Positions 17,000 to 63,366 of a stretch of DNA of 64,000 nucleotides are shown here, in pieces. The notes under the pieces are model-generated. The model saw nothing but the letters and a program-made list of their open reading frames with translations, ran no database searches and was not told the origin of the DNA. Within the stretch, counting starts at the first letter, position 1, and the number at the start of each line of letters is the position of its first letter. A program made the position numbers and the translations under genes. Source of the DNA: a virus. Location: the IMG/VR virus record IMGVR_UViG_3300030098_005409, one strand, 5' to 3'.

Positions 17000-17033
17000 T
17001 ACAACCCTATTCTAAACTAAATAGACACCTCTT

Positions 17034-17531
17034 TTAATAGTTTCCAACTTTTGCTATATCGCCGGATGCTAAAACCTCGACTTTTGATGGCTTTAGATCA
17101 TCCTCGGACAAAGGTGGTGGCTCCATCCCTGCATCTGATACGAGTGTTGAGGAGCTTTGAATCTTACCGCCGCCTACACCCCAAAGCATCTCAATACCTA
17201 ACTCTTCGCATACATTCATCTCTGGTGTGTTGTTCGTCTTCCGATCGCCGCCGTTAGCAAAATAATCTGGTTTAATCCTCCGGAGAGCCTCACACACGGT
17301 ACCATCCCTATCATCAACGTTGGTTGTTTCTCCGGTTCCAGTGAAGCCTTCCAGAATTTCACATCGCTCATCAAATGGCATAAAAATATAGCCTTTCTTT
17401 CGCATCAGCCAATCATCCGAGTTAACAACAACCACTACGTGACCATATCGAGATGCCTCCTGAATCATCCTTAGGTGTCCAATATGAACCGGATCAAAAC
17501 CTCCGGACACACAAATAGTTTTCTTACTCAT
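17034..17531 (-). CDS. Cytidylyltransferase-like (HIGH) nucleotidyltransferase, RfaE-II/TagD type
   Basis: 'GGFDPVHIGH', 'NGGDR', 'SSST'; start moved to MSKKTICV. Confidence 0.85.
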   Translation of the reverse strand: MSKKTICVSGGFDPVHIGHLRMIQEASRYGHVVVVVNSDDWLMRKKGYIFMPFDERCEILEGFTGTGETTNVDDRDGTVCEALRRIKPDYFANGGDRKTNNTPEMNVCEELGIEMLWGVGGGKIQSSSTLVSDAGMEPPPLSEDDLKPSKVEVLASGDIAKVGNY

Positions 17532-17763
17532 CTTCATCTGTCTCCGTCCGTGAAAGGAAGTTTCTTTCAATAGCACCGATTGCTTCTTCGGCATATGCCA
17601 GATTTCCAATTGCTGTGGCTATTTCATTTACAACACTTGGGTGCTTAGCAACTCCGATAGGGTTGTTCAAATATAACTCAATAACCGCGATTGCCTCTTG
17701 TCTATCTGCTTCAAAGCGAGCAAGGGTTGCTCGCACTAATTGTTCAGCCATCATATTACTCAT
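17524..17763 (-). CDS. Hypothetical protein
   Basis: GGAG SD upstream of ATG 17763. The ORF-track extension lies inside tRNA-Pro and was discarded. Confidence 0.7.
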   Translation of the reverse strand: MSNMMAEQLVRATLARFEADRQEAIAVIELYLNNPIGVAKHPSVVNEIATAIGNLAYAEEAIGAIERNFLSRTETDEDE

Positions 17764-17782
17764 TTTTTCTCCTATTATAAAA

Positions 17783-17860
17783 TGGTCGGGGCGGTAGGAT
17801 TCGAACCTACGACCCCCTGCTCCCAAAGCAGGTGCGCTAACCAGACTGCGCTACGCCCCG
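17783..17860 (-). tRNA. tRNA-Pro(UGG)
   Basis: CGGGGCG acceptor, anticodon loop TTTGGGA, GGTTCGAATCC, encoded CCA. Confidence 0.95.
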
Positions 17861-18292
17861 AATAATCTCCCATGTTTGATCTGGCAATAACTCAACCTCA
17901 GCCAAGAACTTGCCGGGATCTATTTTAATCCATTGATTGTCAGCTATTAAGGATAAAAAGTAAGTACCATCTTTTCTTTCATATAGAAAGTACTTATTTC
18001 CTATTACCGGCTGGATATTGAAATCTGCTTCGTAAATAATTTTAGACACATCCACTCGTTCTTTTACTTCTTTTACTTGTTCCATAATTAATTCAGCTTG
18101 CTTTCTTAGTTTATCTATTTCTTTTTCAGCATACCTCTCGGCTGCTGAGATGGCACGTCCCTTGATTGAGGACATGTCATTTGGTCTAATCGCGGGCGCT
18201 GCGGTATTCGTTCCATATGGCTTAATATTAGCATCAAATTCTTCTGTTTCATAGTTGTATACAACGTTGTCAGGAAATTTTTCTTTTGACAT
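17837..18292 (-). CDS. Conserved hypothetical protein (DUF2452-like); stop codon lies inside tRNA-Pro
   Basis: 'PVIGNKYFLYE...FLSLI...W'; ends IRGVAQSG*, encoded by tRNA nt 1-24. Confidence 0.7.
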   Translation of the reverse strand: MSKEKFPDNVVYNYETEEFDANIKPYGTNTAAPAIRPNDMSSIKGRAISAAERYAEKEIDKLRKQAELIMEQVKEVKERVDVSKIIYEADFNIQPVIGNKYFLYERKDGTYFLSLIADNQWIKIDPGKFLAEVELLPDQTWEIIRGVAQSG

Positions 18293-18296
18293 TCTC

Positions 18297-18704: not shown

Positions 18705-18729
18705 ACTACTAATGCCTCAATATATCTCA

Positions 18730-18805: not shown

Positions 18806-18810
18806 ATATA

Positions 18811-19416: not shown

Positions 19417-19471
19417 ATGTGTTTTCTCTGTTTGTTTCTAGTGTAAATAGTTCCTGCAATGGCAAAAACTA

Positions 19472-20647: not shown

Positions 20648-20960
20648 TGGTGGAGGTGGTGGGAATCGAACCCACGTCCAAAGCATATCCAACTTCAAGT
20701 CATTCACAGGTATAGTTTGTTTCTCTAAACAAACAAAGTATCAAATTCGATTCAATCCGCTCAAAAAAGCAAAAGCGTTTTTTTGGTTGTGTTCTTCTTG
20801 GACACCCGGCGAAGAACAACCGGGGATTAAGCAGCTAGTGCTAAACCGTAATCTGCGTCGTTTGCAGTTATATGTTTCTAACTAAAGTTTTATGTGATTG
20901 AGTTAGCTGTCACAACCTGCACTATCCATCTTCCTTACCCTGTCGAAACCTGTCACCCCC
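20648..20960 (-). ncRNA. ssrA: tmRNA, tag ANDADYGLALAA
   Basis: 5' GGGGGTGACAGGTTTCGAC, 3' GGGTTCGATTCCCACCACCTCCACCA with Ala-type G3:U70; resume context ATAACT-GCA; tag codons 20865-20830, then TAA. Confidence 0.95.
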
Positions 20961-22173: not shown

Positions 22174-24333
22174 TTAGCCCACCGATATTCCTAGTAAATA
22201 GTCCATTACTTCAGTAACTAGCTCTTCATCTTCTTTAATGAAGTTCTTGGGATGCCTCTTCTTTTTCTTCTCAGAACCGGCCACTTTCGGCGCGCGCATC
22301 CCAAGGGGTAGAGAATAACCAGCGACGTTGCCACCGGCCATTGAAGACATTTCCTCAAGCTTTCCTTGGAGTATATCATATATTTCCTGATTATAAAATC
22401 CCATAATAGCTTCAAAATCTTCTTGAGAGGCACCCTTGAGAGCCTTTCTTAAAGTAGTTCCTGACATCTCACCAAATCCTGGGACATCAATCTCAACGTG
22501 CGGAGCTACTGCGATGTAACCATGCTTGTCAAGCCCCACAAGTTCTTCTCCGGGCCTGTATGTCTTGTAGTAAGCAGGAGTGCCTCTTTTGGTCATGCCG
22601 TCTAGATTGGCAAACCTGGGACTATCACGCATATCTTTGCCGCCAACAGCGAAAACAACAGCCGTTGATTCTGGGTCGAAGTTCTGAGTAAGTTCCACCG
22701 CCTGATATGGGTTCCTGCTCATCACAATCTTATCAGCAGGCACGCCGTGGGCGACCATAATCTTTTTCTTTTCTTCAAAGTCTAGGGGAGACTTAGGACC
22801 CATCTTATTGGAAGTTACGATAAAAGTATTCTCGTCGCCAAATTGATCAGCAAGCGCTTTATAAGTTGCATAATGGTGACGACCCATAGGCTGGAATCGT
22901 CCGGGATAAATGGCGATAACTTTCTTCTGATCTTGTTCATTCAGAGCCCAATTGACTGCCTCAGCCAAAGCAATCTTTACTTGACTTGCCTCACGAACCA
23001 AAGAAGTGATAGGAGCACCGCCAAGAAGGTTTTCATAAAGATCTTGATTCTTATTTATAACAGAGGGGAGATTACGAGACCACTCCAAAAGAGGCTTGGT
23101 CACAGAGAAACCATCAGATCCCCAGTATACAGTAAGACTTTCGGTTTGCTGGAACTTGGCGCCCTTATCAACAGCAAAGTTTGCCTTGCTGAATTCTAGA
23201 CGATCAACAAATTTGACACCGTTACCGATGTGATCAACAGCAACATAACCCTCTGGATTACTTGCGACAAGATCGCCTGAGCCATCGTCAATAAAATGCT
23301 TTGTGTTATACACAGCGTTGTTATACTTGGCGATGAATATATTTTTTGCCTCGAATAGAAGCCGCGAGACTTTGAAAAGGTTGAGGATATCTTCTTGCTT
23401 GCTATCGAAGGCTGCAAGCATTTCTTGACCTTTTTGGGTTGCTCGCATTTTTCCTTTTTCAGACTTTAGCTTATCAATTCTTTTTTCTAGACGACCTGAA
23501 TACCAACGCTTGAAACCTAAGAAAGATTTAGCTGGATCCTCAAGGAATTGACCACCCTTGATTTCAGAGTTAATGTAGATGTTAAGAAGATCCATCGGCA
23601 GACCTTCATAGTCAATCTTTTCATTGACCTGATCCGCGGCTGAAACTAATTCCTTCACCTTTGCTTCTTCATCTTCAGTTAAAGTAACAGTTCCAGTATC
23701 GTCTGTAAAATAAGCATCATCAACCCATACACCGGGAACCTTATTTAGACCACTTACATCAGCGCCGAAAGAAGCGCCACCGTCCAAACTATCATAAGTT
23801 GTATGAAAAACAATACCGAACTTTGATTCAGCGATCTCTTGTCCAAGCTTGGATTCAACTGGTGCGGCATAAGTAATAGTATTTGGCTTGAAAGCATAAT
23901 GAGGCTCGCCATCAACGTCGATGGTGCTAATCATCTCATCGTCAAACATAAAGTCTCCCTGGAGAATCTTTTGGATTCCTAGGGGAGGCAAGTATTGAAG
24001 TGCTTTTGTAAGCTTATCGACCAAACCCGGAGCGTGTCCGTGATTTCTCCGAACATCTTCGGGGGTATAGTTTATCTTTGGTTCTTTATTGAAGATAGAT
24101 TTGGTTCCAACAAAGAACTTACCATTTTCTGGATTAATACCAGCAAAAATAGCCGGCGCGCCATCCCACTTGACAGAGGTCTTTACTCTTGAATCAACAT
24201 TACCTTTTAACTCTTCTAACAACTCAAGCAGAAAAGCCCGAGCCATATCATATCCCTTTGGACCCTGTGTTAAAACAAGCTCTTCCAGGTGAGTTAAGTG
24301 TGTGTTTGCTTTGCCTTCATCCAGAAGAGACAT
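22174..24333 (-). CDS. Ligase-like nucleotidyltransferase domain (DUF6267-type) fused to a cytidylyltransferase-like domain
   Basis: 'VKWDG', 'LQGD', 'PEGYV', 'VKFVD'; then 'YPGRFQPMGRHH' and 'MSGTTLR'. Confidence 0.7.
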   Translation of the reverse strand: MSLLDEGKANTHLTHLEELVLTQGPKGYDMARAFLLELLEELKGNVDSRVKTSVKWDGAPAIFAGINPENGKFFVGTKSIFNKEPKINYTPEDVRRNHGHAPGLVDKLTKALQYLPPLGIQKILQGDFMFDDEMISTIDVDGEPHYAFKPNTITYAAPVESKLGQEIAESKFGIVFHTTYDSLDGGASFGADVSGLNKVPGVWVDDAYFTDDTGTVTLTEDEEAKVKELVSAADQVNEKIDYEGLPMDLLNIYINSEIKGGQFLEDPAKSFLGFKRWYSGRLEKRIDKLKSEKGKMRATQKGQEMLAAFDSKQEDILNLFKVSRLLFEAKNIFIAKYNNAVYNTKHFIDDGSGDLVASNPEGYVAVDHIGNGVKFVDRLEFSKANFAVDKGAKFQQTESLTVYWGSDGFSVTKPLLEWSRNLPSVINKNQDLYENLLGGAPITSLVREASQVKIALAEAVNWALNEQDQKKVIAIYPGRFQPMGRHHYATYKALADQFGDENTFIVTSNKMGPKSPLDFEEKKKIMVAHGVPADKIVMSRNPYQAVELTQNFDPESTAVVFAVGGKDMRDSPRFANLDGMTKRGTPAYYKTYRPGEELVGLDKHGYIAVAPHVEIDVPGFGEMSGTTLRKALKGASQEDFEAIMGFYNQEIYDILQGKLEEMSSMAGGNVAGYSLPLGMRAPKVAGSEKKKKRHPKNFIKEDEELVTEVMDYLLGISVG

Positions 24334-24336
24334 TGT

Positions 24337-24585
24337 TTACTTATCCTTGTTTTCTTCTAATATAGTAACCTGCTCTTCAAGAATGCTAACGCGCTCTTGA
24401 AGACGGCGCATGTGTCGTCTCACTTCTTTAAGACTTTGCCTAGCCATCTCAATCCGTCGCTCGTCAGTGCGGCTACGTGGAGATATATTCTGGAGAACCT
24501 CAGAGATAGACTGAAGATAGCTAGACACACTTGGTCCTTTGCCTTCATTTTGAATAAACTGGCGCGTTAGACGACGAAAGTCCAC
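24337..24585 (-). CDS. Small coiled-coil protein
   Basis: C-terminal heptad pattern. Confidence 0.6.
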   Translation of the reverse strand: MDFRRLTRQFIQNEGKGPSVSSYLQSISEVLQNISPRSRTDERRIEMARQSLKEVRRHMRRLQERVSILEEQVTILEENKDK

Positions 24586-24588
24586 GGC

Positions 24589-24828
24589 CTATTCCTTAGC
24601 GACTTTAGGTGTCGATGCTCTCTTTTTAGCGGCAGTCTTCTTTGTAGCAGGCTTGACAGTCCTCTTTATGGCTGGCTTGACAGCCTCTTCTACGACGGGT
24701 GCTGGTTCTGGCTCAACAACCGGTGCTGGTGCTTTCTTTGCTGCTGCCTCTTTTGCTGCTGCCTCTGCGGCTGCTTTCTTTGCCGCGGCCTCTGCTCTTC
24801 TTCTGCGTTTTATGTGTGGTGCTACCAT
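24589..24828 (-). CDS. Lys/Ala/Pro-rich histone-H1-like small protein
   Basis: 'AAAKKAAAEAAAKEAAAKKAP', 'KPATKKTAAKK'. Confidence 0.55.
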   Translation of the reverse strand: MVAPHIKRRRRAEAAAKKAAAEAAAKEAAAKKAPAPVVEPEPAPVVEEAVKPAIKRTVKPATKKTAAKKRASTPKVAKE

Positions 24829-24829
24829 T

Positions 24830-25633
24830 TTACTTAGACTCCTTTCTAACTCTTTCTAAGATTCTGCGGGTGATTTGCTTTGCCTCGTGGACAGAGATCA
24901 TCTTTGGTGCTGCTGTTTCCTCAACAGCCTCCTCGATCTCATCCTCAGCGCGACCGCAATGGGCTTCATCAAGATCCATATCTTTTGCCATTGAGGGGCG
25001 ATTTCCTTCTTCATCGCCGTGCTCCTTAGCATCTTTTGCGGCCTGCTTCATTGGCTCTTCTTTATCGCCATCCTTGTCTAGATCTAGGAAGTCTGGCTTG
25101 GCGGCTTCATTAAGAAGTCCCCACTTTTTCATCAACTTAGTGTTGATTTCGTTGTTTTTCCACTCTTTAAGTGACATTTTTGGTTCTCCTGTTTTTGAAA
25201 AATCAATCTCCACATTAATTTTTCCTGTTTTAATTAGGTCTTCAAAGTCCCTAAATATTAAATTTCCTTTTTCATATGCCTCTCGCTCCATTTCTCTAAG
25301 GTGCGGATCTTTCTGGGCATATCCTTCATAAGTAGGATTGTCCCTTGTAAAATCACCTCGGCAGTTCTGTGCGTGATGAACTAACTCGTGAGATAAAGAC
25401 CTTAAGATATCTTTTGGGTGTCTGCCGTCCGTGTAAAGAACAATCTGATAGTTCTCGGGGTCGTAATAAGCAGTTTTGCCCAGCATTCTACCAGCGTTAT
25501 CTTGATCGCTTTGAAAAACAATCGTTGCGCCCTTATCAAAACCTAGCTGTTTTTGCGAATAAGGAAAAAAGTTATCCACCATCTGCTCAAGATGATAGAC
25601 ATTTGCTGGTGTGTTGTTGATGCTTTTATGCAT
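24830..25633 (-). CDS. Zinc metallopeptidase with C-terminal acidic/EF-hand-like region
   Basis: 'SLSHELVHHAQ', 'EREAY', 'DLDKDGDKEE'. Confidence 0.7.
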   Translation of the reverse strand: MHKSINNTPANVYHLEQMVDNFFPYSQKQLGFDKGATIVFQSDQDNAGRMLGKTAYYDPENYQIVLYTDGRHPKDILRSLSHELVHHAQNCRGDFTRDNPTYEGYAQKDPHLREMEREAYEKGNLIFRDFEDLIKTGKINVEIDFSKTGEPKMSLKEWKNNEINTKLMKKWGLLNEAAKPDFLDLDKDGDKEEPMKQAAKDAKEHGDEEGNRPSMAKDMDLDEAHCGRAEDEIEEAVEETAAPKMISVHEAKQITRRILERVRKESK

Positions 25634-25636
25634 TGT

Positions 25637-25957
25637 CTAATAAATAGTTGAAAAAAGAAGAAAAAGAGCGCCCGATAAATGGTAAGCAAATACAAGAAGA
25701 TAGATTATATTCAACCCCAAAAGAATATTGAAGATCATTTTTTGAAATTTTATTCTGAAAAAATAAAGAATGTAAATTCCAACGATACTGAGCCCTAATT
25801 TAGCAAAGACAAATAGTGCCGGGGAACACTGTAAAAAGTAATTCATAATTGGGTTGGCTTCGGTAGCCAATCCAGTCTGCACCCAGAGTAAAGTTGCGAG
25901 GAGATCAAAAAGAATCAAAATAGTCAGTGAGTGAATCAGTCTAACTATTTTTTGCAA
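25637..25957 (-). CDS. Small membrane protein (DUF5658-like)
   Basis: 'LFDLLATL...EANPIM...FAKL'; three hydrophobic helices. Confidence 0.7.
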   Translation of the reverse strand: MQKIVRLIHSLTILILFDLLATLLWVQTGLATEANPIMNYFLQCSPALFVFAKLGLSIVGIYILYFFRIKFQKMIFNILLGLNIIYLLVFAYHLSGALFLLFSTIY

Positions 25958-25960
25958 TTT

Positions 25961-26155
25961 CTATCTCTTCAGTGCTTTGTCCAAAGCGTCTCTAACACCC
26001 TCAGCAGCCAGCCATTTAGGCTGTTGCCAAAACGGCACCAGCATGTGTCCAAGCATTCCTAATCCTGCTAAAAGCAACAAACCAGATAATCTTGATGAAC
26101 GCTTAAGGTGCGCCAACCAGCCTTCGTCTTTAAAATGTGCCCAATCCCAACTCAT
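25961..26155 (-). CDS. Small membrane protein
   Basis: Hydrophobic segment, 'HMLVPF'. Confidence 0.55.
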   Translation of the reverse strand: MSWDWAHFKDEGWLAHLKRSSRLSGLLLLAGLGMLGHMLVPFWQQPKWLAAEGVRDALDKALKR

Positions 26156-26478
26156 TATAATTTACCTTTCCCTGGACCTTTTTCGTATGAAATACTCTTG
26201 AATGCTTTTTCAAGATAATCTGCTGCTTTGGTGATCTTTGATTGAACCCAAGGCTCAAGGTTTTCGTCATCATGGAGCATATCGTGAAGTTGCTGTGCTT
26301 GCGCAGCCATATGGTAAAGTGACCGCTTGGCCATGTTGCCTTCGTATCCGTCTGGATCCTTCTCGTAGTTGTTGGAGGCTGGATCCAGCGTATTCATCTG
26401 TGGCATTTCAAGCAAAACAGAAGAGCCGTTCAACTCTTCAGCAATCATCTTTTTAAGTTCGTTTTTTGAGATTTTCAT
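26155..26478 (-). CDS. Tagged probable head-internal protein
   Basis: 'MKISKNELKKMIAEEL'; 'LEPWVQSKITKAADYL'. Confidence 0.65.
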   Translation of the reverse strand: MKISKNELKKMIAEELNGSSVLLEMPQMNTLDPASNNYEKDPDGYEGNMAKRSLYHMAAQAQQLHDMLHDDENLEPWVQSKITKAADYLEKAFKSISYEKGPGKGKL

Positions 26479-27185
26479 TATTTCTGTTCCTGTTGTTTAG
26501 CAGAGACTTTCAAAAGGTTTTTAAGAACAGCCTGCAGTGCGTTACGATATCTTATAAGGTCATCTTTTTCAGCTATATCAGTTAAGATCTTTTCAATCTG
26601 CACCAACATACCTCTTTCTTTATCATCAACCCCTCCTAAAGCATCGCCTTTTGCAATTGCTTTGGATTTTTCCAGTTCGCCTTTCGCTTGTGTTTGTTGA
26701 GTAACAATTCCGCTCCCAAAACCTTTAAGGGCATCATCTTGCTCCTCAAGCCCAACACCGCCACCAAAATCAGCATAACCCATGCTGTAGTAATTCATAG
26801 CTCCGGATCCACCGGTGCCATATGGCTGCTGACTCTTGGCAGGAGCCACGACTCTTTGGTCAGGCATTGGATGAGCGCCAGCATCTTCTAGGTCGTTCAG
26901 AGCCTTTCTAAGGCACGCAGACGCCTTGAAAGCGTGCTCATAGGCGCCGTCATAGATCGGCTCATCAAGAGCCTCTACGAGCTTCTCAGTAGCCTCTCTA
27001 GCCACGAGAGCGAGATCATATAAGTTGTTTGCCTCTGGATCTCCTTTGTCCTGCTCCGGAGTCTCTGTATCGGCAGCAGGCATTCTGTGTGGAACGCCTT
27101 CAGGAGCAGATGGCTCGTTAATTCCGCCGCCTGTAAACATAGCTTCTTTTACAAGCGCTTGAAGTTGTTTATAATCAATAGTCAT
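26478..27185 (-). CDS. Tagged probable head-internal protein
   Basis: 'MTIDYKQLQALVKEAM'. Confidence 0.55.
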   Translation of the reverse strand: MTIDYKQLQALVKEAMFTGGGINEPSAPEGVPHRMPAADTETPEQDKGDPEANNLYDLALVAREATEKLVEALDEPIYDGAYEHAFKASACLRKALNDLEDAGAHPMPDQRVVAPAKSQQPYGTGGSGAMNYYSMGYADFGGGVGLEEQDDALKGFGSGIVTQQTQAKGELEKSKAIAKGDALGGVDDKERGMLVQIEKILTDIAEKDDLIRYRNALQAVLKNLLKVSAKQQEQK

Positions 27186-27186
27186 T

Positions 27187-28344
27187 TTATCCCTTTACCA
27201 AGAAGCGATCAAATGTGCCCTTAAGATCGGCTAACTTATTTTCCTCTAGATTTCTCATCTTATCTTTTGCGACCGCCGCACGACCGCGACCCTGAGCAAG
27301 ATCTTTGGTTTTTTCAAGCTCTTGTGCCGCAGACCGGTCCGCACTTAGCTCCTCACCGGCTGCAAGCTGCAATTTGTCGTGGTGCTTCTCTGAGGGTAAA
27401 CCAGCCTTCTCGAACTTTTTAAGCATTCTGCGTAGGAGAACAAGATCGTCAAGTGCTGTCAGCGGACCAAGGAATTCAAGACCCATAAAAGTCCCGGCAT
27501 CAACAGGAGAAACGAAATTAAGAATAGCAAAAGCAGCTAAGAGTCGAAGTTTTGTTGGCGTGTCACGGTCGACGCTGGCCATAAACATGGCAGCCAAGTC
27601 GCGCCCACCGGGAAGATTTAGAAGCGCTTTCAAAACTGGGTTGCCTTTAGCTTCCTGTAGATCGCCGGTACCTAGCTTGTCGAGTAGTACATTTAAAACC
27701 TTGTCCTGCTCATCTTCTGGCATTGCTTCAATCGCATCTTCGGCAGTCTCAACTGGGTCTTTTGCCTCATCTAAGTCTTCCTTCTTAGAATCTTCTTTAG
27801 CGGCTTTTCTTGCTTTTTTGTTGGCGGCTTTCTTTTCGTCCTTGGTGGCATCTGGTGGTGTTTTTGCAACCTTAGAAGCTCTACCCATTGCCTCTTGTAG
27901 AGCTTCCTGAAGTTCTGTGTTAGACGACAATATAGACAAAAACTGCTCTCTAACGGCATCAACAATTAGGGCTGCAACCTCATCCGCTTGGTCTTTAATG
28001 ATTTTAGCAAATGCTCTTTGCATGAGTCCTTCAATTACATCTCCGTCAAATGGGATATCTGGCACAATCTTGGAGGCAATATCGTCTGCGTTCTCAATAA
28101 GGTGCGATTCTATCTGACGCGCAGCAATTCGTAAGAACAAACCAGCTGCAGCGTCCAGTACTGCTCCAGCGCTAGTGTTCTTAAAGGTTTCACTAGCAGC
28201 ATACCTCAGTGGCTCTTTAAAGTCCCCTATGTTTTTTAGTACGCCCTTTGCAGTAGCGGTTAAACTATTTTCGTTTTTCAACTCTTCCGAGACCATTTGT
28301 GCTATTTGGTCGATTATTCTTTTGTCCATGGTGGATTCTCCCAT
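27187..28344 (-). CDS. Tagged multidomain protein with a YkvA/DUF1232-like hydrophobic segment
   Basis: 'IIDQIAQMVSEEL'; 'AILNFVSPVDA...LDDLVLL'; repeated L-x-E sites. Confidence 0.55.
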   Translation of the reverse strand: MGESTMDKRIIDQIAQMVSEELKNENSLTATAKGVLKNIGDFKEPLRYAASETFKNTSAGAVLDAAAGLFLRIAARQIESHLIENADDIASKIVPDIPFDGDVIEGLMQRAFAKIIKDQADEVAALIVDAVREQFLSILSSNTELQEALQEAMGRASKVAKTPPDATKDEKKAANKKARKAAKEDSKKEDLDEAKDPVETAEDAIEAMPEDEQDKVLNVLLDKLGTGDLQEAKGNPVLKALLNLPGGRDLAAMFMASVDRDTPTKLRLLAAFAILNFVSPVDAGTFMGLEFLGPLTALDDLVLLRRMLKKFEKAGLPSEKHHDKLQLAAGEELSADRSAAQELEKTKDLAQGRGRAAVAKDKMRNLEENKLADLKGTFDRFLVKG

Positions 28345-28351
28345 ATGTTAA

Positions 28352-29335
28352 TTAGTCTTTTTTCTTTTGTAATCGTTTAGTTTTTTCTTTTGATGCTTCT
28401 TTTCTTTTCTCAGCGTGATCAAGAACTTTCTTCAATCTGGCTTTGGTCTTAGGGTCCTTAGCATTCTGATAGGCAGCCCGTACACGCTGATGGATAAGAT
28501 TAATAATCTGTGACTGACGCTTGTGAGACTTTGATTTGAAGGATTTCTTTGATAAGGTATCCTTTACATCTTGAACTGTTCGGAACTTTACTGACACTGT
28601 ATCACTTGGATCCTCGTCGGTGTAAAGTCTGCGTCCTGAACCTTTTGGTTTCTTGCCAGTTCCAGTCTTAGGATCCTTACCTTCTTCGGCCTTGATACAA
28701 TTTCTGTACGTCTTGCCGTACATCTTCTTAGTTTTGCGTTTGGGGTGAGTTTTATAACCCTTCTGGCAACGTTCTTGCAGTCCATCAGGCTCCATATATG
28801 GATGATCTTTAAGATACTTTTTCATCTTAGGTGCTGGTTCAATCCCAGCTTCTTGAAGTTTATTCGCCCACATAGACAGCATTGTCTCACGTATTTCCTC
28901 ATCTCCCCGGACAAAGTTTGCTTTTATGCCTGCTTCTTTGGCCGCCGCAATCTCTTCTTCGTCATCATCCCAATGTTCGATAACACCAAGAGATAAAAGA
29001 GTTTCAGCTTTCAAATCTCCATTTGTGTAGTGGATAGACTTGACGGGAAGATTCATACCGGCAACCAACTCTTCTGGCTCTGGTGCTGTATCCCATGGAT
29101 ACTTGTCTCCTGTGCGTTTCGATCGGGAAGTAACAATATAAACAGTTTCACCGGCAGCTGCGAGTTCTCTTAGTTTGGCGATGTTCTCTTCGTGGGGCTT
29201 GTCGTATATGGTGCTGAATTCAGGATCTTCAGGATCTGTCTTATACTTGATAAGTGTCTCGTCATAATCAAACGAGTAAGCGCCTTTCTTTTCTTCGTTT
29301 AGGAAGTTCTTCCAGTTTTCAAGTAGGAGTTTCAT
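28352..29335 (-). CDS. Tagged protein: HAD-like phosphatase domain plus basic C-terminal domains
   Basis: 'MKLLLENWKNFLNE'; HAD motifs 'FDYDETL', 'IVTSR', 'K', 'HWDDD'. Confidence 0.7.
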   Translation of the reverse strand: MKLLLENWKNFLNEEKKGAYSFDYDETLIKYKTDPEDPEFSTIYDKPHEENIAKLRELAAAGETVYIVTSRSKRTGDKYPWDTAPEPEELVAGMNLPVKSIHYTNGDLKAETLLSLGVIEHWDDDEEEIAAAKEAGIKANFVRGDEEIRETMLSMWANKLQEAGIEPAPKMKKYLKDHPYMEPDGLQERCQKGYKTHPKRKTKKMYGKTYRNCIKAEEGKDPKTGTGKKPKGSGRRLYTDEDPSDTVSVKFRTVQDVKDTLSKKSFKSKSHKRQSQIINLIHQRVRAAYQNAKDPKTKARLKKVLDHAEKRKEASKEKTKRLQKKKD

Positions 29336-29742
29336 TTCTTAGATACCTTCCAGCCGCCCATCATACCTCCAGGCATATCATATTCTTCAACATTTACAGA
29401 ATCATCCTGCTGCAGTCTTGTCCAGATTTTGGTGCCAGCCGGCGATTGCGATGGATCACTATATAGCACCCCCACATGATCGAGAAGCCACTTATAGAAA
29501 TCAGTCATATAGAAAGCAGCGTCTGATTCTTTTTTTGCATATTTGACTCTCACGCCATCTTCGTGAGGAACTACGTCCAACGTAGCTTTTGTTTTCCCCT
29601 CGGGATCCATTACAGAATAAACTATAACGTCGCCGCCGAAAGGACTAGATTCGCTAGACTGCAACACCTGATGTTTTCCAAAAGAACCCACTTCCTGGTT
29701 TTCTACCAAATACTTCCGCCAGTTTTCAAGGATTAGTTTCAT
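29332..29742 (-). CDS. Tagged protein, possible GNAT-like fold
   Basis: 'MKLILENWRKYLVE'; 'LYSDPSQSPAGTKIWTRL'. Confidence 0.5.
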   Translation of the reverse strand: MKLILENWRKYLVENQEVGSFGKHQVLQSSESSPFGGDVIVYSVMDPEGKTKATLDVVPHEDGVRVKYAKKESDAAFYMTDFYKWLLDHVGVLYSDPSQSPAGTKIWTRLQQDDSVNVEEYDMPGGMMGGWKVSKK

Positions 29743-29744
29743 GA

Positions 29745-30182
29745 CTAGTCCTTCCCGATATTACTTCTGTCCTGCCATTCGTGAGATGTTTCATCTGTAT
29801 CAATAGGGCCACCCGCAGCCCATGTATAGCACGTGCGCGCGCTGTGGCATTTAAAATGATGCATCCAGCAATAACCTAGCCGACCTTCTTCATCTTCAAT
29901 GGGCCCTGGAAAGCATTCGTCCATTCTTGGCGAGATATCAAACGCCGCGCAATTATTGCACATTGATTGTTTTGCAACCTCAACGGTTGTGTTCCAGTGC
30001 TCTGCCAGTCTATCATAGTATGCTTCATCAGCAAGATTAAGGGGTCCGTATTGAATGTGCTCTGCTTTGATGGCAGAATCACGGTTCTTTGTGTTTAATT
30101 CTAAATCCTGTGTGGCAGGGGGGCAAATGTATTTCTTTGCCTCTGTCAAAAACCTTTTCCAGTTTTCAAGTAGGAGTTTCAC
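29745..30182 (-). CDS. Tagged Cys/His-rich metal-binding protein
   Basis: GTG start 'MKLLLENWKRFLTE'; 'CNNC...GYCWMHHFKCHSARTC'. Confidence 0.65.
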   Translation of the reverse strand: MKLLLENWKRFLTEAKKYICPPATQDLELNTKNRDSAIKAEHIQYGPLNLADEAYYDRLAEHWNTTVEVAKQSMCNNCAAFDISPRMDECFPGPIEDEEGRLGYCWMHHFKCHSARTCYTWAAGGPIDTDETSHEWQDRSNIGKD

Positions 30183-30565
30183 TCTACTCCTCCAAACATT
30201 TTCTTAAACTTCTCGGGTGTCTCAGCTTCCTCGGAGACATCAAGGATCTTTGCCTTTATTGTTTCAACCTCTTGATTGATTGCTTTTTGTAGCCGATGGT
30301 TGCCATCCAAAACATACTTGAGCTGCCCATCTTTCTTGATGACTATAATAGGAAACTCTAAGCTCGCTGCTGCTACTCGCTCCTCACCTCTGGTTGGAAG
30401 AGGGGGTATTTGTTTGGAAAGTTCTAAAACATTAATGTCAATAGTTTTGTCTCCCAAGAAATCATCTATCTCTCCAAGTGTAACCTTTCCCTCATCATTT
30501 TCCCACGATGTATCGCGCCAACTTTCTGTAAGATACTGCCGCCAGTTTTCAAGGATAAGTTTCAT
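30179..30565 (-). CDS. Tagged ParB/Sulfiredoxin-like protein
   Basis: 'MKLILENWRQYLTE'; 'PIIV...VLDGNHRL'. Confidence 0.75.
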   Translation of the reverse strand: MKLILENWRQYLTESWRDTSWENDEGKVTLGEIDDFLGDKTIDINVLELSKQIPPLPTRGEERVAAASLEFPIIVIKKDGQLKYVLDGNHRLQKAINQEVETIKAKILDVSEEAETPEKFKKMFGGVE

Positions 30566-30570
30566 TTGTT

Positions 30571-31485
30571 TTACCACTTCTTACAGGACCAGTAGCGTGC
30601 CTTTGTTTTGGGTCCTGGGTTATCACAGTTGTGTCGAGCCCGGAAAGACTTGCGTCTCTTTGGATTAGACTTCTTGATTCTCATCTTCTTATCACCGAAA
30701 TTAACCTTCTTTACATTTCCGGTTTTCGGATCTTTGACATAAACTTTGAATTTTTTAACATCTCCACGCGTGGGTTTGTTGAGAGTAACCTTGCGACCCT
30801 GGTATTCTGCCTCGTAGACAAGATCAGGGCAGCCACAGGTAGCTGTATCTAGTTGTTCTACCAAGCAAGCAACACACGCTGGGGTACCGTCATCAAGGAA
30901 AGCTTCTGTTAAGTAAGGAAGAATATCGTTCTCCAAAAGATGACGATTAACCTCTTCTGCGATAATGCCATACAATTCGTCTCTGTTCATATCAAGATTC
31001 TCCTTCTTGGCGCCTTTCTTGCCCCAAGACTTGCCTTTTCCTTTTTCCTTACAAGCCCCCGGAGTTGGGCGGCAAGCAGGGTACTTAGAGCGCTTCTCGC
31101 CCTTCTCGCGGCCACAAGACTTATAGCCACCCTTGCCGTCTGGGGCATTACAATCAACCCAGCCACTCTTCTTTCCCTTGGCGCCTTTGCGTCCAAACCA
31201 ATCTCGGAGGCTACTTTCTTTACTAGATTCAGTTCCGGCTTTTTTCTTTTTGGCTTCTTCAAGAAGGTCTTCATACTCTGTGTTCTCTGCAAGATCGGCA
31301 TCTTCGATCTCCTCTTTGACACCCTTCCAGATTTTACCGGCTCGACAGCGCACAACGGCGCCGGAAGCATATGCTGAGGGCCATACATCATATTTACGTT
31401 TAGCGATTCTTGTGCAACGATCATCTTTTTCTTCGATGATGTCTTCTTCTAGATAAGAACTCCAGCTTTCAAATAAGTACTTCAT
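30571..31485 (-). CDS. Tagged multidomain basic, Cys-containing protein
   Basis: 'MKYLFESWSSYLEE'; internal 'ELYGIIAEEV'; 'WPSAYASGAVVRCR', 'RRKSFRARHNC...ARYWSCKKW'. Confidence 0.65.
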   Translation of the reverse strand: MKYLFESWSSYLEEDIIEEKDDRCTRIAKRKYDVWPSAYASGAVVRCRAGKIWKGVKEEIEDADLAENTEYEDLLEEAKKKKAGTESSKESSLRDWFGRKGAKGKKSGWVDCNAPDGKGGYKSCGREKGEKRSKYPACRPTPGACKEKGKGKSWGKKGAKKENLDMNRDELYGIIAEEVNRHLLENDILPYLTEAFLDDGTPACVACLVEQLDTATCGCPDLVYEAEYQGRKVTLNKPTRGDVKKFKVYVKDPKTGNVKKVNFGDKKMRIKKSNPKRRKSFRARHNCDNPGPKTKARYWSCKKW

Positions 31486-31486
31486 T

Positions 31487-31771
31487 CTATTCTTTACCCT
31501 TCCCTTGCATCCTAAGTAGTCTATCTTCGGCGTATTTTGCCCTCATATCGCCCAAGCCACGGTCAATTTTTTCAAGAGCTTGGGCTAACATCTTTTCTTG
31601 GGTGGTTAATTTAGAGACAATCATCTCTTGATGATACTGCCGTGCTTCTTTAGCAGCCTTGTCTTCTTCCTTCTTGTCCTTGCGCTGTTGCCAGTTCATA
31701 AACAGCAAAGAAGCAGTCCATAATCCGAGGACTCCATACTGCGCTAACCCTTTTATTATCTCAAGTTCCAC
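31487..31771 (-). CDS. Single-pass membrane protein with coiled coil (holin-like candidate)
   Basis: N-terminal hydrophobic helix; close to the amidase. Confidence 0.4.
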   Translation of the reverse strand: MELEIIKGLAQYGVLGLWTASLLFMNWQQRKDKKEEDKAAKEARQYHQEMIVSKLTTQEKMLAQALEKIDRGLGDMRAKYAEDRLLRMQGKGKE

Positions 31772-31790
31772 TCAATAATTAGTGACCTTC

Positions 31791-32108
31791 TTAGAGGAGA
31801 TGTTTTTTGTCTTTAATATTTTTATACTTTTCTGCTTCTGGATGAGGGTCTATAGAATACTCAATTTCCGGGGCAGTCCGGGAAAGCCTCTCGTTAATCT
31901 GTATAAATTCTACTTGGTCAGCCGGAATTTCAAAGTCCCCATATATTGCATCCACAGGACACATTGGTTCACAGGCATCACAATTTATGCAAATCTCAGG
32001 ATCAATAACCAGCATATCCGGAGCTTCTCTAAAAGCGTACACAGGACATGCATCGACACAATCAGTATATTTGCATTTAATGCAAGCCTCAGTTACAACG
32101 TAAGCCAT
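31791..32108 (-). CDS. fdxA: Ferredoxin, FdxA/7Fe type
   Basis: 'CIKCKYTDCVDACPV...CINCDACEPMCPV'. Confidence 0.9.
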   Translation of the reverse strand: MAYVVTEACIKCKYTDCVDACPVYAFREAPDMLVIDPEICINCDACEPMCPVDAIYGDFEIPADQVEFIQINERLSRTAPEIEYSIDPHPEAEKYKNIKDKKHLL

Positions 32109-32510
32109 TTAGGTAAAGTCCTTCGGATCTCTATACTTCTGGCGTACTTTTTCAGAGATAGGGATCGCCTCGCCATCACCATCAATACGAACGAAGGTCA
32201 TCTGGGTACTGACGACTGCTTTCTGTGTGCCGTTATACACGGAGTGCCTTCTGGCCTCCATATTCAGCGTTAGAGAGGTTTTACCCACCTTGGCCACCTC
32301 TCCATATATCTTGATGATTTGCCCGGGCCTAGCGGGCTTCTGAAAGGTCATAGAAGCGATGTGCTTCGTGACCATTCTAGGCGTGTCGGCAACTTGAGCA
32401 GCAAATGCTGCTGCAGCTTCGTCAAGCCATGCCATCATAATGCCTCCAAAGAGGTTGTCGTGATAGCCTACGTCATTCTTCTTCACGAAGTGCGTTGATA
32501 TGAGTTGCAT
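32109..32510 (-). CDS. Acyl-CoA thioesterase (hotdog fold, YciA-like)
   Basis: 'NLFGGIMMAWLDEAAA', 'GKTSL', 'MTFVRID'. Confidence 0.9.
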   Translation of the reverse strand: MQLISTHFVKKNDVGYHDNLFGGIMMAWLDEAAAAFAAQVADTPRMVTKHIASMTFQKPARPGQIIKIYGEVAKVGKTSLTLNMEARRHSVYNGTQKAVVSTQMTFVRIDGDGEAIPISEKVRQKYRDPKDFT

Positions 32511-33361: not shown

Positions 33362-33379
33362 TCTCTAAAAAACTCCCAC

Positions 33380-33880
33380 TTATAAATACTCTTTCCATTT
33401 GGAATTGGCATTTCCAATCTTTTTCTTAATTATAGAGTGATAGGATGGTGCCTTTGGAGGTCTTAAAAGCTTGACGGGAGCATCTTCGGGCATATGATTG
33501 CCTTTTAGTTGATTACATCCTCTACAAGCAGCTACAACGTTGTCCCACGTCGTTTGTCCGCCTTTGGAACAAGGAATTACATGATCTATCGTCAATTCGC
33601 TTTCTTTGAAGCGATTTCCGCAATATTGGCAATGAAAATTGTCACGAAGAAGAATATTTTTCCTCACACAAGCTACATCAAAGAATTTTTCGTCAATATA
33701 GCGAAATAAAACGATCACGGAGGGTATCTGGAAGGCTTCTTTGGCTGAATGAACCCATTTATCAGTCCATTCAGCAGCCCAAGCCTTTTTGAGCCACGTA
33801 AGGACAACAGCTTCTTGCCAGGAGATAACTCCTATTGGTTTGAATGAAGAATCTAATTTTAGAACGGTCACATTGTCCAT
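33380..33880 (-). CDS. HNH endonuclease
   Basis: 'CQYCG...TIDHVIP.SKGG...NVVAACRGCN..K'. Confidence 0.9.
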   Translation of the reverse strand: MDNVTVLKLDSSFKPIGVISWQEAVVLTWLKKAWAAEWTDKWVHSAKEAFQIPSVIVLFRYIDEKFFDVACVRKNILLRDNFHCQYCGNRFKESELTIDHVIPCSKGGQTTWDNVVAACRGCNQLKGNHMPEDAPVKLLRPPKAPSYHSIIKKKIGNANSKWKEYL

Positions 33881-33938
33881 AAATTACAGAATTGGCTTGT
33901 TCACAAAGTAAATAGAGAATCGTAAGCCAAAATAAAAC

Positions 33939-33967: not shown

Positions 33968-34022
33968 AGGAAGAAGAGCCAAACTAAAATGTTTTTAGGC
34001 AGTGTAAGAAAGTATTTAATGT

Positions 34023-35261: not shown

Positions 35262-35262
35262 A

Positions 35263-36570: not shown

Positions 36571-36571
36571 C

Positions 36572-39242: not shown

Positions 39243-39278
39243 AAACAACTCCTATCAGTAAGTAGTTGCTCAGAGGCT

Positions 39279-39542: not shown

Positions 39543-39568
39543 AACGAACTTAAGTAGTTCGTTAAAAG

Positions 39569-40327: not shown

Positions 40328-40371
40328 ATATGCTCCGTATATAACTAGTTTCTAAAGTCCTCAAAATTTTC

Positions 40372-56678: not shown

Positions 56679-56900
56679 TCACTAAATAGTTTTTTGAGGA
56701 ATCTTCTGCCAATAATCCTGATTGGTGTATCGTTTCTCGCCCACAGTTTCGGGATAAGATTTGTCGTAAACTATCACCAATTCGCACACCTCGGCTCCTG
56801 AACTCGTCACATCTACGTTTAGGACAATTGCCAGGCGACCGGAGTCCTGTCTATATTGTACCAAGTCTCCCGAAGCCAAGCGCATGTCCTAAATAGTAGC

Positions 56901-56967
<67 letters not shown>

Positions 56968-56977
<10 letters not shown>

Positions 56978-60957: not shown

Positions 60958-61021
60958 AACATAGCCTCCTACTCTTATACTGTAGCATAGGAATCCGAGG
61001 CTGTCAAGATTTATTATTGTT

Positions 61022-61267
61022 TTAGCGAGTAAGGCGCGCTCGCACCGCTGAATAAAATCCATTCTTCTGTGCGGCTTCTTCATTCGCAAAGCACAGTTCG
61101 GCCTGTGTGCGATGGTAGAACGGGCTATCCGGGGTGTGATATAAGTATGAATTAGCATTACCCTTGATAGGGAAGTCTGCTGGGCAGCTTCCATCCGTGG
61201 GCGCGAACCTTATATGGGCACACCCAGTCATCAATAATGCACACACAATAATTAAAATCTTTTTCAT
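61022..61267 (-). CDS. Putative lipoprotein with Ada-like/sunset metal-binding domain
   Basis: Lipobox 'LMTGC'; 'IKGN...YHTP...Y...CFANEEAAQKNGF'. Confidence 0.65.
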   Translation of the reverse strand: MKKILIIVCALLMTGCAHIRFAPTDGSCPADFPIKGNANSYLYHTPDSPFYHRTQAELCFANEEAAQKNGFYSAVRARLTR

Positions 61268-61488
61268 CTCTCTTGTCTTTCTGTTCTGCTCACCAGCTCA
61301 TAACTCTTCTCATGGAATGTAAACTCGCGACCCTGAGACATCATAGTAACCGTTGTGAACTTTTGGTCTGTCTGATCGTGGACCAGCTCCCGGATCTCTG
61401 TTACAAGGCCCACGGGATGCCCCAGCCACTCACTTTCTATAAGTCTCACTAAATCGCCAATTCTTATGTCTACTGGGTACTCCATCAC
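61264..61488 (-). CDS. SH3/KOW-like small protein
   Basis: 'IRIGDLVRL...VGLV'; promoter 61504-61532. Confidence 0.6.
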   Translation of the reverse strand: MMEYPVDIRIGDLVRLIESEWLGHPVGLVTEIRELVHDQTDQKFTTVTMMSQGREFTFHEKSYELVSRTERQER

Positions 61489-61541
61489 TCAACCTTCAAC
61501 GACATAGTAGCACGCTAGGCGGGCGGTGTCAAGGGTTGTTC

Positions 61542-63002
61542 TCAAATAAGGCCAGCGAGGCGCTGAAACCTTTCCACAATGTGACCTGCATAGCCTCGAC
61601 TGCCTTGGGGTCCGAATAAAAACAGCCCCACGTCGGCCACGACCAAATCACCATTTGAGCGTTGCATGAGATTGTGGGCGTGTACATCACCATACTGAGT
61701 GTCATATTTTTCCAGCTTTTTAAGCCGGTTGTAGAAGTTTTTAGCCACTTGTGATTTTATCTCGGAGGGCGGCACCATAGATGCGGCCAGGGCCGATGAT
61801 CTCCCGATAGTTTCTGGGTCATATTGAGATAAGCGCATATTGGCATCCAACTGCTTCCCCAGTATTTCCGGGCTGGCCATAATATTGAGAGTGCGCAGAG
61901 CTTCCGGGTCTGTGATATATTTCTCGAAAGCATCTTTTACATATGTTGAAATGTGGCGCTTCATGTCGTGAATGGCAAAGTAATCATTCTCAGGGTCAGA
62001 CCGCAAGTAAGCCCTCTTGAGATCCGCCAGTTTCTTCTCTATCTCTCGAAATATAGGGAAGGCTCTCTCGTCCTTGATCGGCAAAGCTTGTTCTGTTACG
62101 GGACCCGGATCTGTTCCGCGGCGCATGGAGGCGCTTTCCGGAGACTCCAAAGTGCTAAATATTTTTTCTAATCTGTCTTCTCCTATCAACTTTTCCAATG
62201 CTGAATAGATATTATCAATGGCTAGATAGTTGTCAACAAATCGCTTTCGTACTTCAGGCTCTGGTTTCCCCAGAGGGTCGGCGCCAAAAACATCCACTCG
62301 CGTTGCAGGATCAAGGCTATCCAACAATTCCATCTGCACAACAAAGACTTTATATTTCTGTCCACCTTCTTTCTCGATGAACTTCCCTCGGCGAATGGTT
62401 CCCTCAGGGTCAACAGGAGGGGACGGCAACACACTAATGTCTAGTATCTCCGGGAGGACGTTGGCGGCCTGCGGGTCTCGCGTTTCTAAGCCGTCCTTAA
62501 GTTTTTTGATGTTGCGATAGGCGTTTATTTCCTGGCCGGATAAGGTCATCTTTACCGCAACAGGACCCCAAGCGGGATTCTCGCCCCGGTAAACAATGCC
62601 AAACTCTCCCGAGCCGAGCGGCTCAGGGTCGATGGTGATTCCCTCTTTGTTGGAGTAGGCTAGTAAGAGCTTGTCCTGCACATCCTTCGCAAAATCGGTG
62701 ATAGTAAATCGCTCGGGATCTCGCAGCGGTCTCTCTGGCGCCTGTATAACTTCCCGCTCCTTGTCTAAAGCGGCCTGTCGGGCCGGGCTGAGTTTTACTG
62801 TTTTGTCGGGGTCTCCCGCGGCGCTCGGGGCATCAGGCATCTGGGTGGTGTCGGGCTCCTCCAGATCTCTGGTGCCAAAAAACTTTTTCAGAGCCTCACG
62901 CTCTTTGGCGCGCTTTTTGCGGCGCCTAAGGTCGTGGACATAAACGGTCGGATCCAACTCTTCCCTAATTATTCGGCGCAGACTCGATTTGGATATCTTC
63001 AT
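61542..63002 (-). CDS. Tagged Ser/Thr-kinase-like protein with a large insertion
   Basis: 'MKISKSSLRRIIREEL'; 'LGSGEFG', 'VAVK', 'MELL', 'GDVHAHN', 'ADVG'. Confidence 0.8.
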   Translation of the reverse strand: MKISKSSLRRIIREELDPTVYVHDLRRRKKRAKEREALKKFFGTRDLEEPDTTQMPDAPSAAGDPDKTVKLSPARQAALDKEREVIQAPERPLRDPERFTITDFAKDVQDKLLLAYSNKEGITIDPEPLGSGEFGIVYRGENPAWGPVAVKMTLSGQEINAYRNIKKLKDGLETRDPQAANVLPEILDISVLPSPPVDPEGTIRRGKFIEKEGGQKYKVFVVQMELLDSLDPATRVDVFGADPLGKPEPEVRKRFVDNYLAIDNIYSALEKLIGEDRLEKIFSTLESPESASMRRGTDPGPVTEQALPIKDERAFPIFREIEKKLADLKRAYLRSDPENDYFAIHDMKRHISTYVKDAFEKYITDPEALRTLNIMASPEILGKQLDANMRLSQYDPETIGRSSALAASMVPPSEIKSQVAKNFYNRLKKLEKYDTQYGDVHAHNLMQRSNGDLVVADVGLFLFGPQGSRGYAGHIVERFQRLAGLI

Positions 63003-63366
63003 CAGGAGACTTTTCCTCTTCTATAAATAGTCCGAAACGCTCTTGTTCCCCATCATCGTAGGTAATGATAGTGCGGTTTCCGGGATGCGGCTTGATATGA
63101 ACAGTAATGAAATCATTCATTGAATCAAAAATAGCAATAGATCCTTTTGGCCGTGGATACAACCAATGTGCGATGCACTGCCCTGTTGCTAACACAACGC
63201 CCTCGATCACCACACCCTCGCCTGAAACTCCTGTCTCATCGTTTTGTCGTGCGACTGTGAACGTCTGAATGCCGCGTGGGCATAAGCGCGATGGCTTTTT
63301 CGGTATCAGTTCCTCCGCCGGGGATTGCTCCTCTTCAGTGGTGGTATCATTTATTTCTTCAGTCAT
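62965..63366 (-). CDS. Hypothetical protein
   Basis: 'DETGVSGEGVVIEGV...HWL'. Confidence 0.65.
   Translation of the reverse strand: MTEEINDTTTEEEQSPAEELIPKKPSRLCPRGIQTFTVARQNDETGVSGEGVVIEGVVLATGQCIAHWLYPRPKGSIAIFDSMNDFITVHIKPHPGNRTIITYDDGEQERFGLFIEEEKSPDEDIQIESAPNN

Follow-up and report, generated by a model that had tools for sequence, protein, structure and literature searches.

The late promoter of phage T4 is the word TATAAATA at positions −13 to −6, with no conservation at −35 and with A often replacing T at −13 (PMC1524935). Late transcription in T4 uses gp55 together with gp33 and the gp45 sliding clamp. In Aeromonas phage Aeh1, the corresponding word is CTAAATA, for which C−12 is strongly determining, and its gp55 has diverged (PMC1524935; PMC2988020). 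Here, we compare with these systems an element, (A/T)CTAnTTA, found before genes in a 64,000-nt stretch of DNA from an uncultured ocean phage (IMG/VR record IMGVR_UViG_3300030098_005409; "the window" below means this whole stretch) and in its relatives. The motif is a real, conserved cis-element. Judged from sequence, it is quite probably the late-class promoter of this lineage, read by the host RNA polymerase (RNAP) core with the phage's own gp55-like sigma factor, and the best interpretation is a late promoter of the gp55 type that has diverged, neither unrelated to that of T4 nor reversed.

No match to the window was found by megablast against 50,697 phage records, that is, no close DNA match among cultured phages. 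Relatives were gathered from IMG/VR through a 719-aa window protein (22174–24333) that has hundreds of relatives there; 80 ocean-phage loci, 752 kb in all, were taken for comparison, along with the whole records G002 (88 kb; 93% aa-identical in the 719-aa protein) and G003, a complete relative of 195,690 nt in IMG/VR (rated 100% complete). By large terminase (terL), the nearest cultured phages are Flavobacterium phage immuto and Microcystis phage Mel-JY01 (46% identity), whereas a T4-like phage of the Kyanoviridae, at 28–29%, is much more distant than Immutovirus (46%). Gene transfer by BLASTP from Pelagibacter phage HTVC008M, a cultured SAR11 phage, recognised only 7–9 core genes per genome.

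An earlier note on this DNA had given the motif in a loose form, [AT][CG]TA[ACGT]TTA, which is not enriched in the window (30 copies on both strands versus 33.1 ± 6.0 in shuffles); what stands is its core, ACTANTTA. Nearly all genes of the window lie on the minus strand, which holds 13 copies of the core where Markov models of order 1–4 predict 3.5–4.0 (Poisson p = 2e-4); the plus strand holds none, against 2.2–4.0 expected. All copies except the one at 13130, which lies within a gene, are found no more than 50 nt upstream of a start (12 of 13). Across the 80 related loci, the sense strand carries 288 copies versus 78.8 expected and the antisense strand 12 versus 54.9 (p = 3e-12), a depletion that would be expected if stray copies fired. 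In G003, 30 of the 43 sense copies fall within the 7.7% of the sequence directly upstream of genes, where the AT-rich composition of this zone predicts 2.3 (13-fold; binomial p = 4e-24), so the excess over AT-rich background that the earlier note's proposal implied is present.

When 6-mers were screened without bias in 669 non-redundant upstream regions, the sample also used for the motif model, the Shine–Dalgarno (SD) word AAGGAG ranked first, followed by words that are all pieces of ACTA[ATG]TTA; the remaining words are only sigma70-type −10 words (e.g., TATAAT) and diffuse AT-rich ones. The weight matrix refined by expectation maximization (EM) reads A 0.75/T 0.16, C 0.93, T, A, n, T, T, A, is present in about a quarter of the upstream regions as (A/t)CTAnTTA, and has the C as its most informative base. 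The permissive [CG] of the earlier pattern is too wide, because G reaches only 0.04 at position 2. No second element or −35 word was found within 45 nt upstream and 44 nt downstream, where no position exceeds 0.13 bit; the information is thus limited to the eight motif positions, a single AT-rich 8-bp element. An origin by chance or from the base composition of AT-rich intergenic DNA, for which the count of the loose pattern in the window and the AT-richness of upstream regions might speak, can be regarded as already refuted and carries a negligible probability, in view of the 13-fold excess, the sense-to-antisense ratio of 288:12, the nearly invariant C, the persistence of the motif across diverged orthologous regions, and the sharp peaks of ATG offsets described below.

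Before orthologous genes the motif persists, although its flanks and the spacers have changed. Each of the 21 orthologs examined, with protein identities as low as about 51%, keeps the copy at 22195, which appears in two codon registers, gAC-TAT-TTA (D-Y-L) and gaA-CTA-ATT-A (E-L-I), with similar residues encoded; two registers inside the 719-aa gene point to selection on the DNA word itself. The stretch 22174–22202 (minus strand), with a putative promoter word within C-terminal codons, also offers an example of dual coding and regulatory constraint. Thirteen orthologous loci preserve the copy at 25641, followed by a 6–10 nt spacer to the ATG that varies in sequence and length, and nine of nine relatives of the gene starting at 19416 carry an upstream copy at shifted positions. 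Before yeaH, AGTATTTA plus 4 nt plus ATG is kept in two relatives (L005 and L006) with different spacer letters, and the PhoH orthologs of G002, G003 and phage immuto are preceded by the motif as well.

Placed in the orientation and register of T4, the motif reads A−13 C−12 T−11 A−10 n−9 T−8 T−7 A−6. It shares with TATAAATA the T at −11, the A at −10, the T at −7 and the A at −6, or four to six of eight positions overall, and it resembles the T4 promoter in being an 8-bp AT-rich element that stands alone at −10, without −35, 5′ of virion genes. It differs in having C rather than A at −12, T rather than A at −8, and a relaxed −9; (A/t)CTAnTTA therefore does not fit the T4 consensus, even with A or T allowed at −13, and is the variant nearest to CTAAATA of Aeh1. 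With the latter it has in common the C at −12, a purine (often A) at −13, TA at −11/−10 and −7/−6, and the pairing with a strongly diverged gp55; the Aeh1 word, too, was found in silico, upstream of late-gene orthologues (PMC1524935). One fixed base differs (T instead of A at −8), −9 accepts any base (T more often than A), and Aeh1 belongs to another phage lineage with another sigma architecture.

The earlier note had described the motif as the reverse complement of T4-like TAAATA and hence not a T4 gp55 promoter as oriented. The first part is real, since TATTTATA of immuto is the exact reverse complement of TATAAATA, yet it is not needed to account for the motif, and an antisense promoter makes no sense given the fixed distance of the motif to sense-strand starts. 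The second part is not supported: in the same orientation, the register shares four positions with T4 and C−12 with Aeh1, and the sigma is gp55-like. The canonical word NATAAATA was rejected as the promoter of the lineage, with 36 occurrences versus 39.7 expected on the coding strand of G003 and 59 versus 50.4 on the other. In HTVC008M (NC_020484, L102–L104), which has an annotated late sigma transcription factor, the canonical motif is strongly depleted in antisense (4 versus 46.4) and ACTANTTA is not enriched; these reversed counts indicate that the selective signature has moved from the canonical word to the motif.

Other known promoter types were considered in the same way. Identity with a sigma70 −35/−10 promoter was rejected, as no TTGACA-like −35 lies 16–18 bp upstream and true sigma70-like promoters are nearly exclusive with the motif. 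Unlike extended −10 or −10-only sigma70 promoters, the motif has no TG at −15/−14, and both C−12 and the TTA at −8 to −6 misfit TATAAT. The −7 motif of Bacteroidetes, TAnnTTTG, was also rejected, since its spacing and its G misfit and the clade uses strong SD sequences and TTGACA promoters.

The distance between motif and start codon falls into two classes. ATGs were counted at each offset after 241 unique (A/T)CTANTTA copies without reference to gene calls, with open reading frames (ORFs) of at least 50 codons. ATGs that open an ORF peak at offsets 4 and 5 (18 and 14 versus about 2.5 background per offset, p = 7e-16) and again at offsets 17–19 (7, 13 and 20). The short spacing accounts for 32 of the 241 sites, about one in eight, and only three of these 32 have an in-frame SD-led alternative start, whereas in the long-spacing class (offsets 15–24) an SD-like word lies in between in 63 of 75. 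GTG shows a small peak at offset 4 (six cases). Among orthologous genes, the letters of the spacer change but its length of 4–5 nt stays. If the final A of the motif is at −6, an offset of 5 puts the A of ATG at +1. In HTVC008M, used as an independent control, 11 of the 96 sites of N[ACT]TAAATA are followed by an ATG at exactly 5 nt, and in ten of these the ATG opens an ORF of at least 40 codons; gp4, gp48/54, gp25 and gp3 are among the late genes inspected that show this spacing. Five nucleotides in the T4 register again place the A of ATG at +1, which implies leaderless late mRNAs in this phage.

In the mechanism that we propose, the host RNAP core would carry the phage sigma, whose N-terminal domain would be a diverged homologue of T4 gp55, to an 8-bp, −10-only element at about −13 to −6, and transcription would start some 5–6 nt downstream of the last motif A. 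Two designs would follow. In one, the start codon lies 4–5 nt (up to about 8) after the motif, and the mRNA would begin at or near AUG/GUG and be translated without SD; in the other, the start codon lies 17–19 nt after the motif, behind a leader of 12–14 nt that would hold only the SD. We infer the exact start site and leaderless translation from the sequence; start codons 4–5 nt after the motif without SD in a subset of genes are consistent with the leaderless or near-leaderless mRNAs suggested earlier. Leaderless phage mRNAs include that of lambda cI from PRM and those of many genes of Thermus phage phiYS40. The likeness lies in a promoter so placed that transcription would start at or next to the start codon, with no SD; the differences are that here this is deduced from spacing, is tied to a late promoter of a phage sigma, and occurs side by side with an SD-led class. 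A considerable subset of promoters abutting the start codon also sets this lineage apart from T4.

The copies in the window are as follows (the leaderless and SD-led classes are the predicted designs given above):

13130..13137, minus strand: ACTAGTTA, deep in a glycosyltransferase gene, probably a chance copy.
17018..17025, minus strand: TCTATTTA, 18 nt before ATG 16999 (PIN-PhoH, 439 aa).
19444..19451, minus strand: ACTATTTA, 27 nt before ATG 19416 (62 aa).
22195..22202, minus strand: ACTATTTA, 23 nt before ATG 22171 (278 aa), in the last codons of the 719-aa gene.
25641..25648, minus strand: ACTATTTA, 7 nt before ATG 25633 (267 aa), no SD.
28349..28356, minus strand: ACTAATTA, 4 nt before ATG 28344, overlapping the stop of the upstream gene; also 19 nt before the in-frame ATG 28329 (GGGAG as SD), so that both geometries fit.
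31513..31520, minus strand: ACTACTTA, 27 nt before ATG 31485 (304 aa), within the 3′ end of the upstream gene.
31776..31783, minus strand: ACTAATTA, 4 nt before GTG 31771 (94-aa ORF with an N-terminal membrane-like helix), putative leaderless class with GTG.
33383..33390, minus strand: AGTATTTA, a weak G variant, 21 nt before ATG 33361 (229 aa) with GGGAG in between, an uncertain member.
33909..33916, minus strand: TCTATTTA, 28 nt before ATG 33880 (166 aa).
34011..34018, plus strand: AGTATTTA, the rare G variant, 4 nt before ATG 34023 of yeaH.
39259..39266, minus strand: ACTACTTA, 16 nt before ATG 39242 (169 aa), with TAGGAG in between.
39551..39558, minus strand: ACTACTTA, 8 nt before ATG 39542 (32-aa hydrophobic peptide ORF), putatively near-leaderless.
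40342..40349, minus strand: ACTAGTTA, 14 nt before ATG 40327 (252 aa), with GGAG in between.
56683..56690, minus strand: ACTATTTA, 4 nt before GTG 56678 (110-aa ORF with a signal-peptide-like N-terminus), putative leaderless class with GTG.
56890..56897, minus strand: ACTATTTA, 4 nt before ATG 56885 (67-aa ORF), 3 nt downstream of tRNA-Arg (56901–56977), putative leaderless class.
63024..63031, minus strand: ACTATTTA, 21 nt before ATG 63002 (486-aa ORF 61542–63002), SD-led class.

Every copy listed in the earlier note was found where that note had placed it, and the spacing of its five cases at exactly 4 nt is right throughout, three of them with ATG (28344, 34023, 56885) and two with GTG (31771, 56678). 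Among these five, 28344 alone has a better-looking alternative, the ATG at 28329. Both GTGs open membrane- or signal-peptide-like N-termini and have no in-frame SD-led alternative; an SD-led ATG downstream of 56678 was discarded because it is out of frame and opens only 27 codons. Further near-leaderless cases in the window are 25633 (7 nt) and 39542 (8 nt). The 32-codon ORF behind the latter (39444–39542, minus strand; MFSDSNDDITKAVFWICLGTIIGSVISILMNT) is a candidate membrane micropeptide that escapes ORF lists with a 50-aa cutoff. The change of strand at yeaH is also borne out: AGTATTTA, 4 nt and ATG lie on the plus strand, like the gene.

A sigma factor of about 230 aa is encoded by one gene per genome in G002, G003 and G004 and matches phrog_234, "late sigma transcription factor" (E = 4.9e-6 and 3.2e-3 in per-protein scans; 8.6e-8, 1.3e-4 and 4.6e-4 in the genome search). 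Two of these genes are placed as follows:

G002 30122–30808 (L098:10122–10808), plus strand: sigma gene, phrog_234 match.
G003 33191–33898 (L088:13191–13898), minus strand: sigma gene, phrog_234 match.

The match of this sigma to Pfam Sigma70_r2 is weak, and a profile search against the PDB returns sigma factors and gp55 only, again weakly (E 0.17–1.3). An AlphaFold (AF2) model from a 55-sequence alignment reaches a predicted local distance difference test score (pLDDT) of 91.5, and nearly all of its top Foldseek hits are sigma factors. When the model was compared with 48,161 PDB chains by VIA-align, the best match was T4 gp55 (7d7d_F, the gp55 chain of the gp45-dependent activation complex) with Z 10.8, superposing model residues 10–132 (117 residues aligned, root-mean-square deviation 4.5), and the C-terminal residues 137–227 resemble sigma region 4 (3mzy, Z 7.5; 2h27, Z 5.7); as helical folds readily give middling Z values, the structural match is counted together with the sequence evidence and not alone. 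Homologues are present in immuto (31% identity) and Mel-JY01 (27%), and in public metagenomes the family forms at least 1,302 clusters at the 50% identity level, the named members among those listed all being hypothetical proteins.

The lineage thus resembles T4 in that the phage encodes a gp55-like sigma domain and would use the host RNAP, and differs from it in that the sigma, at about 230 aa, has an extra region-4-like C-terminal domain, which T4 gp55 (185 aa) lacks. The sigma could be an unsplit counterpart of T4 gp55 plus gp33, and the modelled region-4-like domain may take the place of gp33 at the β flap. BLASTP with gp45, gp33 and gp55 of HTVC008M at 1e-5 gave no match, with divergent homologues possible, and Pfam gp45-slide_C (PF09116) gave none in G003, a weak test that a divergent homologue could escape. 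No phage RNA polymerase was found in the complete G003, in which PF00562 has no match; the PF00940 match was rejected as such a polymerase because it is sub-threshold and lies inside terL. Of the distinct phage sigma or RNAP site proposed at the outset, what remains is a phage with its own sigma and a standalone, strand-specific element without −35 before virion genes; the polymerase finds no support in G003. Moreover, the N-terminal domain is most like T4 gp55, which argues for divergence within the gp55 system and against a separate one. The pairing of motif and two-domain sigma has no prior description in the literature searched, and the placement before virion genes comes from G002 and G003; the same search gave no link of CTATTTA to a phage late promoter and no leaderless late mRNAs in marine T4-like phages.

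It might be argued that a host holoenzyme, with a primary or alternative sigma and perhaps a phage factor, reads the motif and that the phage sigma serves another set of promoters. The TAnTTA core does look like an AT-rich −10 hexamer that begins with the key TA, and the motif has no −35 partner despite the region-4-like domain of the phage sigma. On the other side, the 6-mer screen yields no other conserved upstream word as a target for the phage sigma, neither a TG extended −10 nor a −35 is present, the most informative base, C−12 (0.93), fits the gp55-type Aeh1 variant and not sigma70, and the TATTTA core and the sigma homologue are common to phages reported on hosts of different phyla (Flavobacterium, Microcystis) and the marine clade. 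Reading by a host holoenzyme is accordingly held improbable.

The genes behind the motif are consistent with a late class. In G003, the genes led by the motif include those for tail sheath and tail tube (phrog_4542, E = 1.5e-24), several in a row around the gene for the major capsid protein, PhoH and assorted small genes; sigma70-like promoters (TTGACA-N17-TAtaaT) stand before gp41 helicase, a gene beside UvsX and blocks of small ORFs. Of the 66 promoter-bearing genes, 38 have the motif, 30 a sigma70-like promoter and two both. The same pattern is found around the head and baseplate genes of G002. The motif gene class rests on the few genes that could be named, namely sheath, tube, portal, protease, major capsid protein, terL, gp25 and a gp6-like protein, since most of the genes scanned against PHROG (ten of G002, six of them motif-led, and ten of G003, all motif-led) matched no family. 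About 30 nt upstream of the capsid gene of G002 (81560–81600; L101) lies AATAAATA, a residual canonical-type promoter or a chance occurrence. In immuto, TATTTA is the top upstream word (22 versus 3.2 expected), and (c/a)TATTTATAa precedes portal, sheath, tube, baseplate hub, a virion structural protein and PhoH; in Mel-JY01, where TATTTA is the top upstream word as well, aTATTTAta precedes terminase, tube and other genes. On sequence comparison, the TATTTA core is thus lineage-wide, and the C at −12 marks the marine clade.

Within the window, sigma70-like promoters occupy 41–64 kb and the motif 17–40.4 kb, with three motif copies in the early-looking block. The claim that the motif is absent before genes served by sigma70 promoters therefore largely holds, given the overlap of two genes in G003, with exceptions in the window at 63024, 56890 and 56683. 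The region 41–64 kb (minus strand), which looks like an early region, has about 20 near-consensus sigma70 promoters ahead of small ORFs. Most follow the form TTGACA-N17-TAnnnT, and many have the TG of an extended −10, as does TTGACAGCCACCTTTGAGGCTGGTATAAT at 48675. Such promoters argue for a host whose sigma70 and SD usage are like those of E. coli, in contrast to the Bacteroidetes host of the nearest cultured relative.

Another possibility is that the motif acts in RNA, as a site at which an endoribonuclease of host or phage processes polycistronic transcripts and so makes 5′ ends before start codons. The motif often lies in or at the end of the upstream gene and in tight same-strand arrays, where read-through RNA would contain it, its AU-richness and strand specificity are those expected of an RNA signal, and the T4 literature warns that mapped 5′ ends may stem from processing (PMC2988020). 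Several observations are harder to accommodate: copies lie after a tRNA gene and at the head of the strand-switched yeaH cassette, where read-through is not assured; the motif is near-exclusive with sigma70-type promoters; its size, register and part of its sequence are of the gp55 type, a gp55-like sigma occurs alongside it, and the canonical late motif is absent. The antisense depletion, too, is easier to explain for a DNA promoter, albeit not decisively. Processing is hence given little credence next to a promoter read by the phage sigma.

It should be noted that some points weigh against a late promoter of this kind. Sigma and motif are paired by co-occurrence alone, and the timing "late" is inferred from gene content alone. 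Sigma region 4 normally reads the −35 box, and the region-4-like domain of the phage sigma has no visible −35 partner at the motif. GTG is a poor leaderless start in E. coli, and two of the 4-nt cases in the window use it. The related loci are non-independent samples, whose contexts were de-duplicated. A look for RNA runs containing the sequence, made for positions 24000–33999, listed none. No motif copy lies directly upstream of the major capsid gene in G002 and G003, which would have to be co-transcribed with the preceding gene. Finally, "late" may be too narrow, since the motif also precedes PhoH, yeaH and small membrane proteins.

Other features of the window can be summarized briefly. The yeaH–spoVR–prkA cassette lies on the plus strand at 34023–38506. 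Upstream of yeaH (33939–34022, plus strand; L005 and L006), a conserved sigma70-like TTGAAG-N17-TATACT about 75 nt upstream accompanies AGTATTTA, and no SD is visible; the two conserved signals suggest that yeaH is expressed both early and late, in the late case in a leaderless form. The PIN-PhoH gene starts at ATG 16999 on the minus strand (439 aa), and a glycosyltransferase-rich cluster lies at 1–14 kb. RNA genes comprise nine tRNA genes, with those for Pro, Ala and Thr at 17.8–18.9 kb and six more at 56.9–58.8 kb, and a one-piece transfer-messenger RNA (tmRNA) at 20648–20960 (minus strand) with the tag ANDADYGLALAA and flanking tRNA genes. The style of this tag resembles that of gamma- and beta-proteobacterial tags and could hint at the host.

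The practical consequences concern annotation. Late-promoter annotation in marine T4-like phages looks for TATAAAT (PMC3037559, PMC9004378), and such a search is expected to miss the late regulon of this lineage because the canonical word is not enriched there. The motif would offer a simple means of assigning the late genes of these genomes and would help to fix start codons, since gene callers that expect an SD misplace leaderless ones. The 4–5 nt spacing here and the exact 5 nt in HTVC008M suggest that leaderless late mRNAs are common in ocean myophages. A broader picture can be drawn only tentatively, in which this abundant, uncultured ocean myophage lineage, Immutovirus and Mel-JY01 might all have an unsplit late sigma, a −10-only promoter of the TATTTA type, no clamp dependence and many leaderless late mRNAs. 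If this is true, promoter-abutting starts would be a general, unreported design of marine T4-like phages, as HTVC008M shows it with the canonical motif, and the unsplit sigma would stand, as a living intermediate, between ordinary sigma70-family factors and the split gp55/gp33 of T4. A gp55-like sigma with a region-4-like domain bears on the origin of the T4 late system of gp55, gp33 and clamp.

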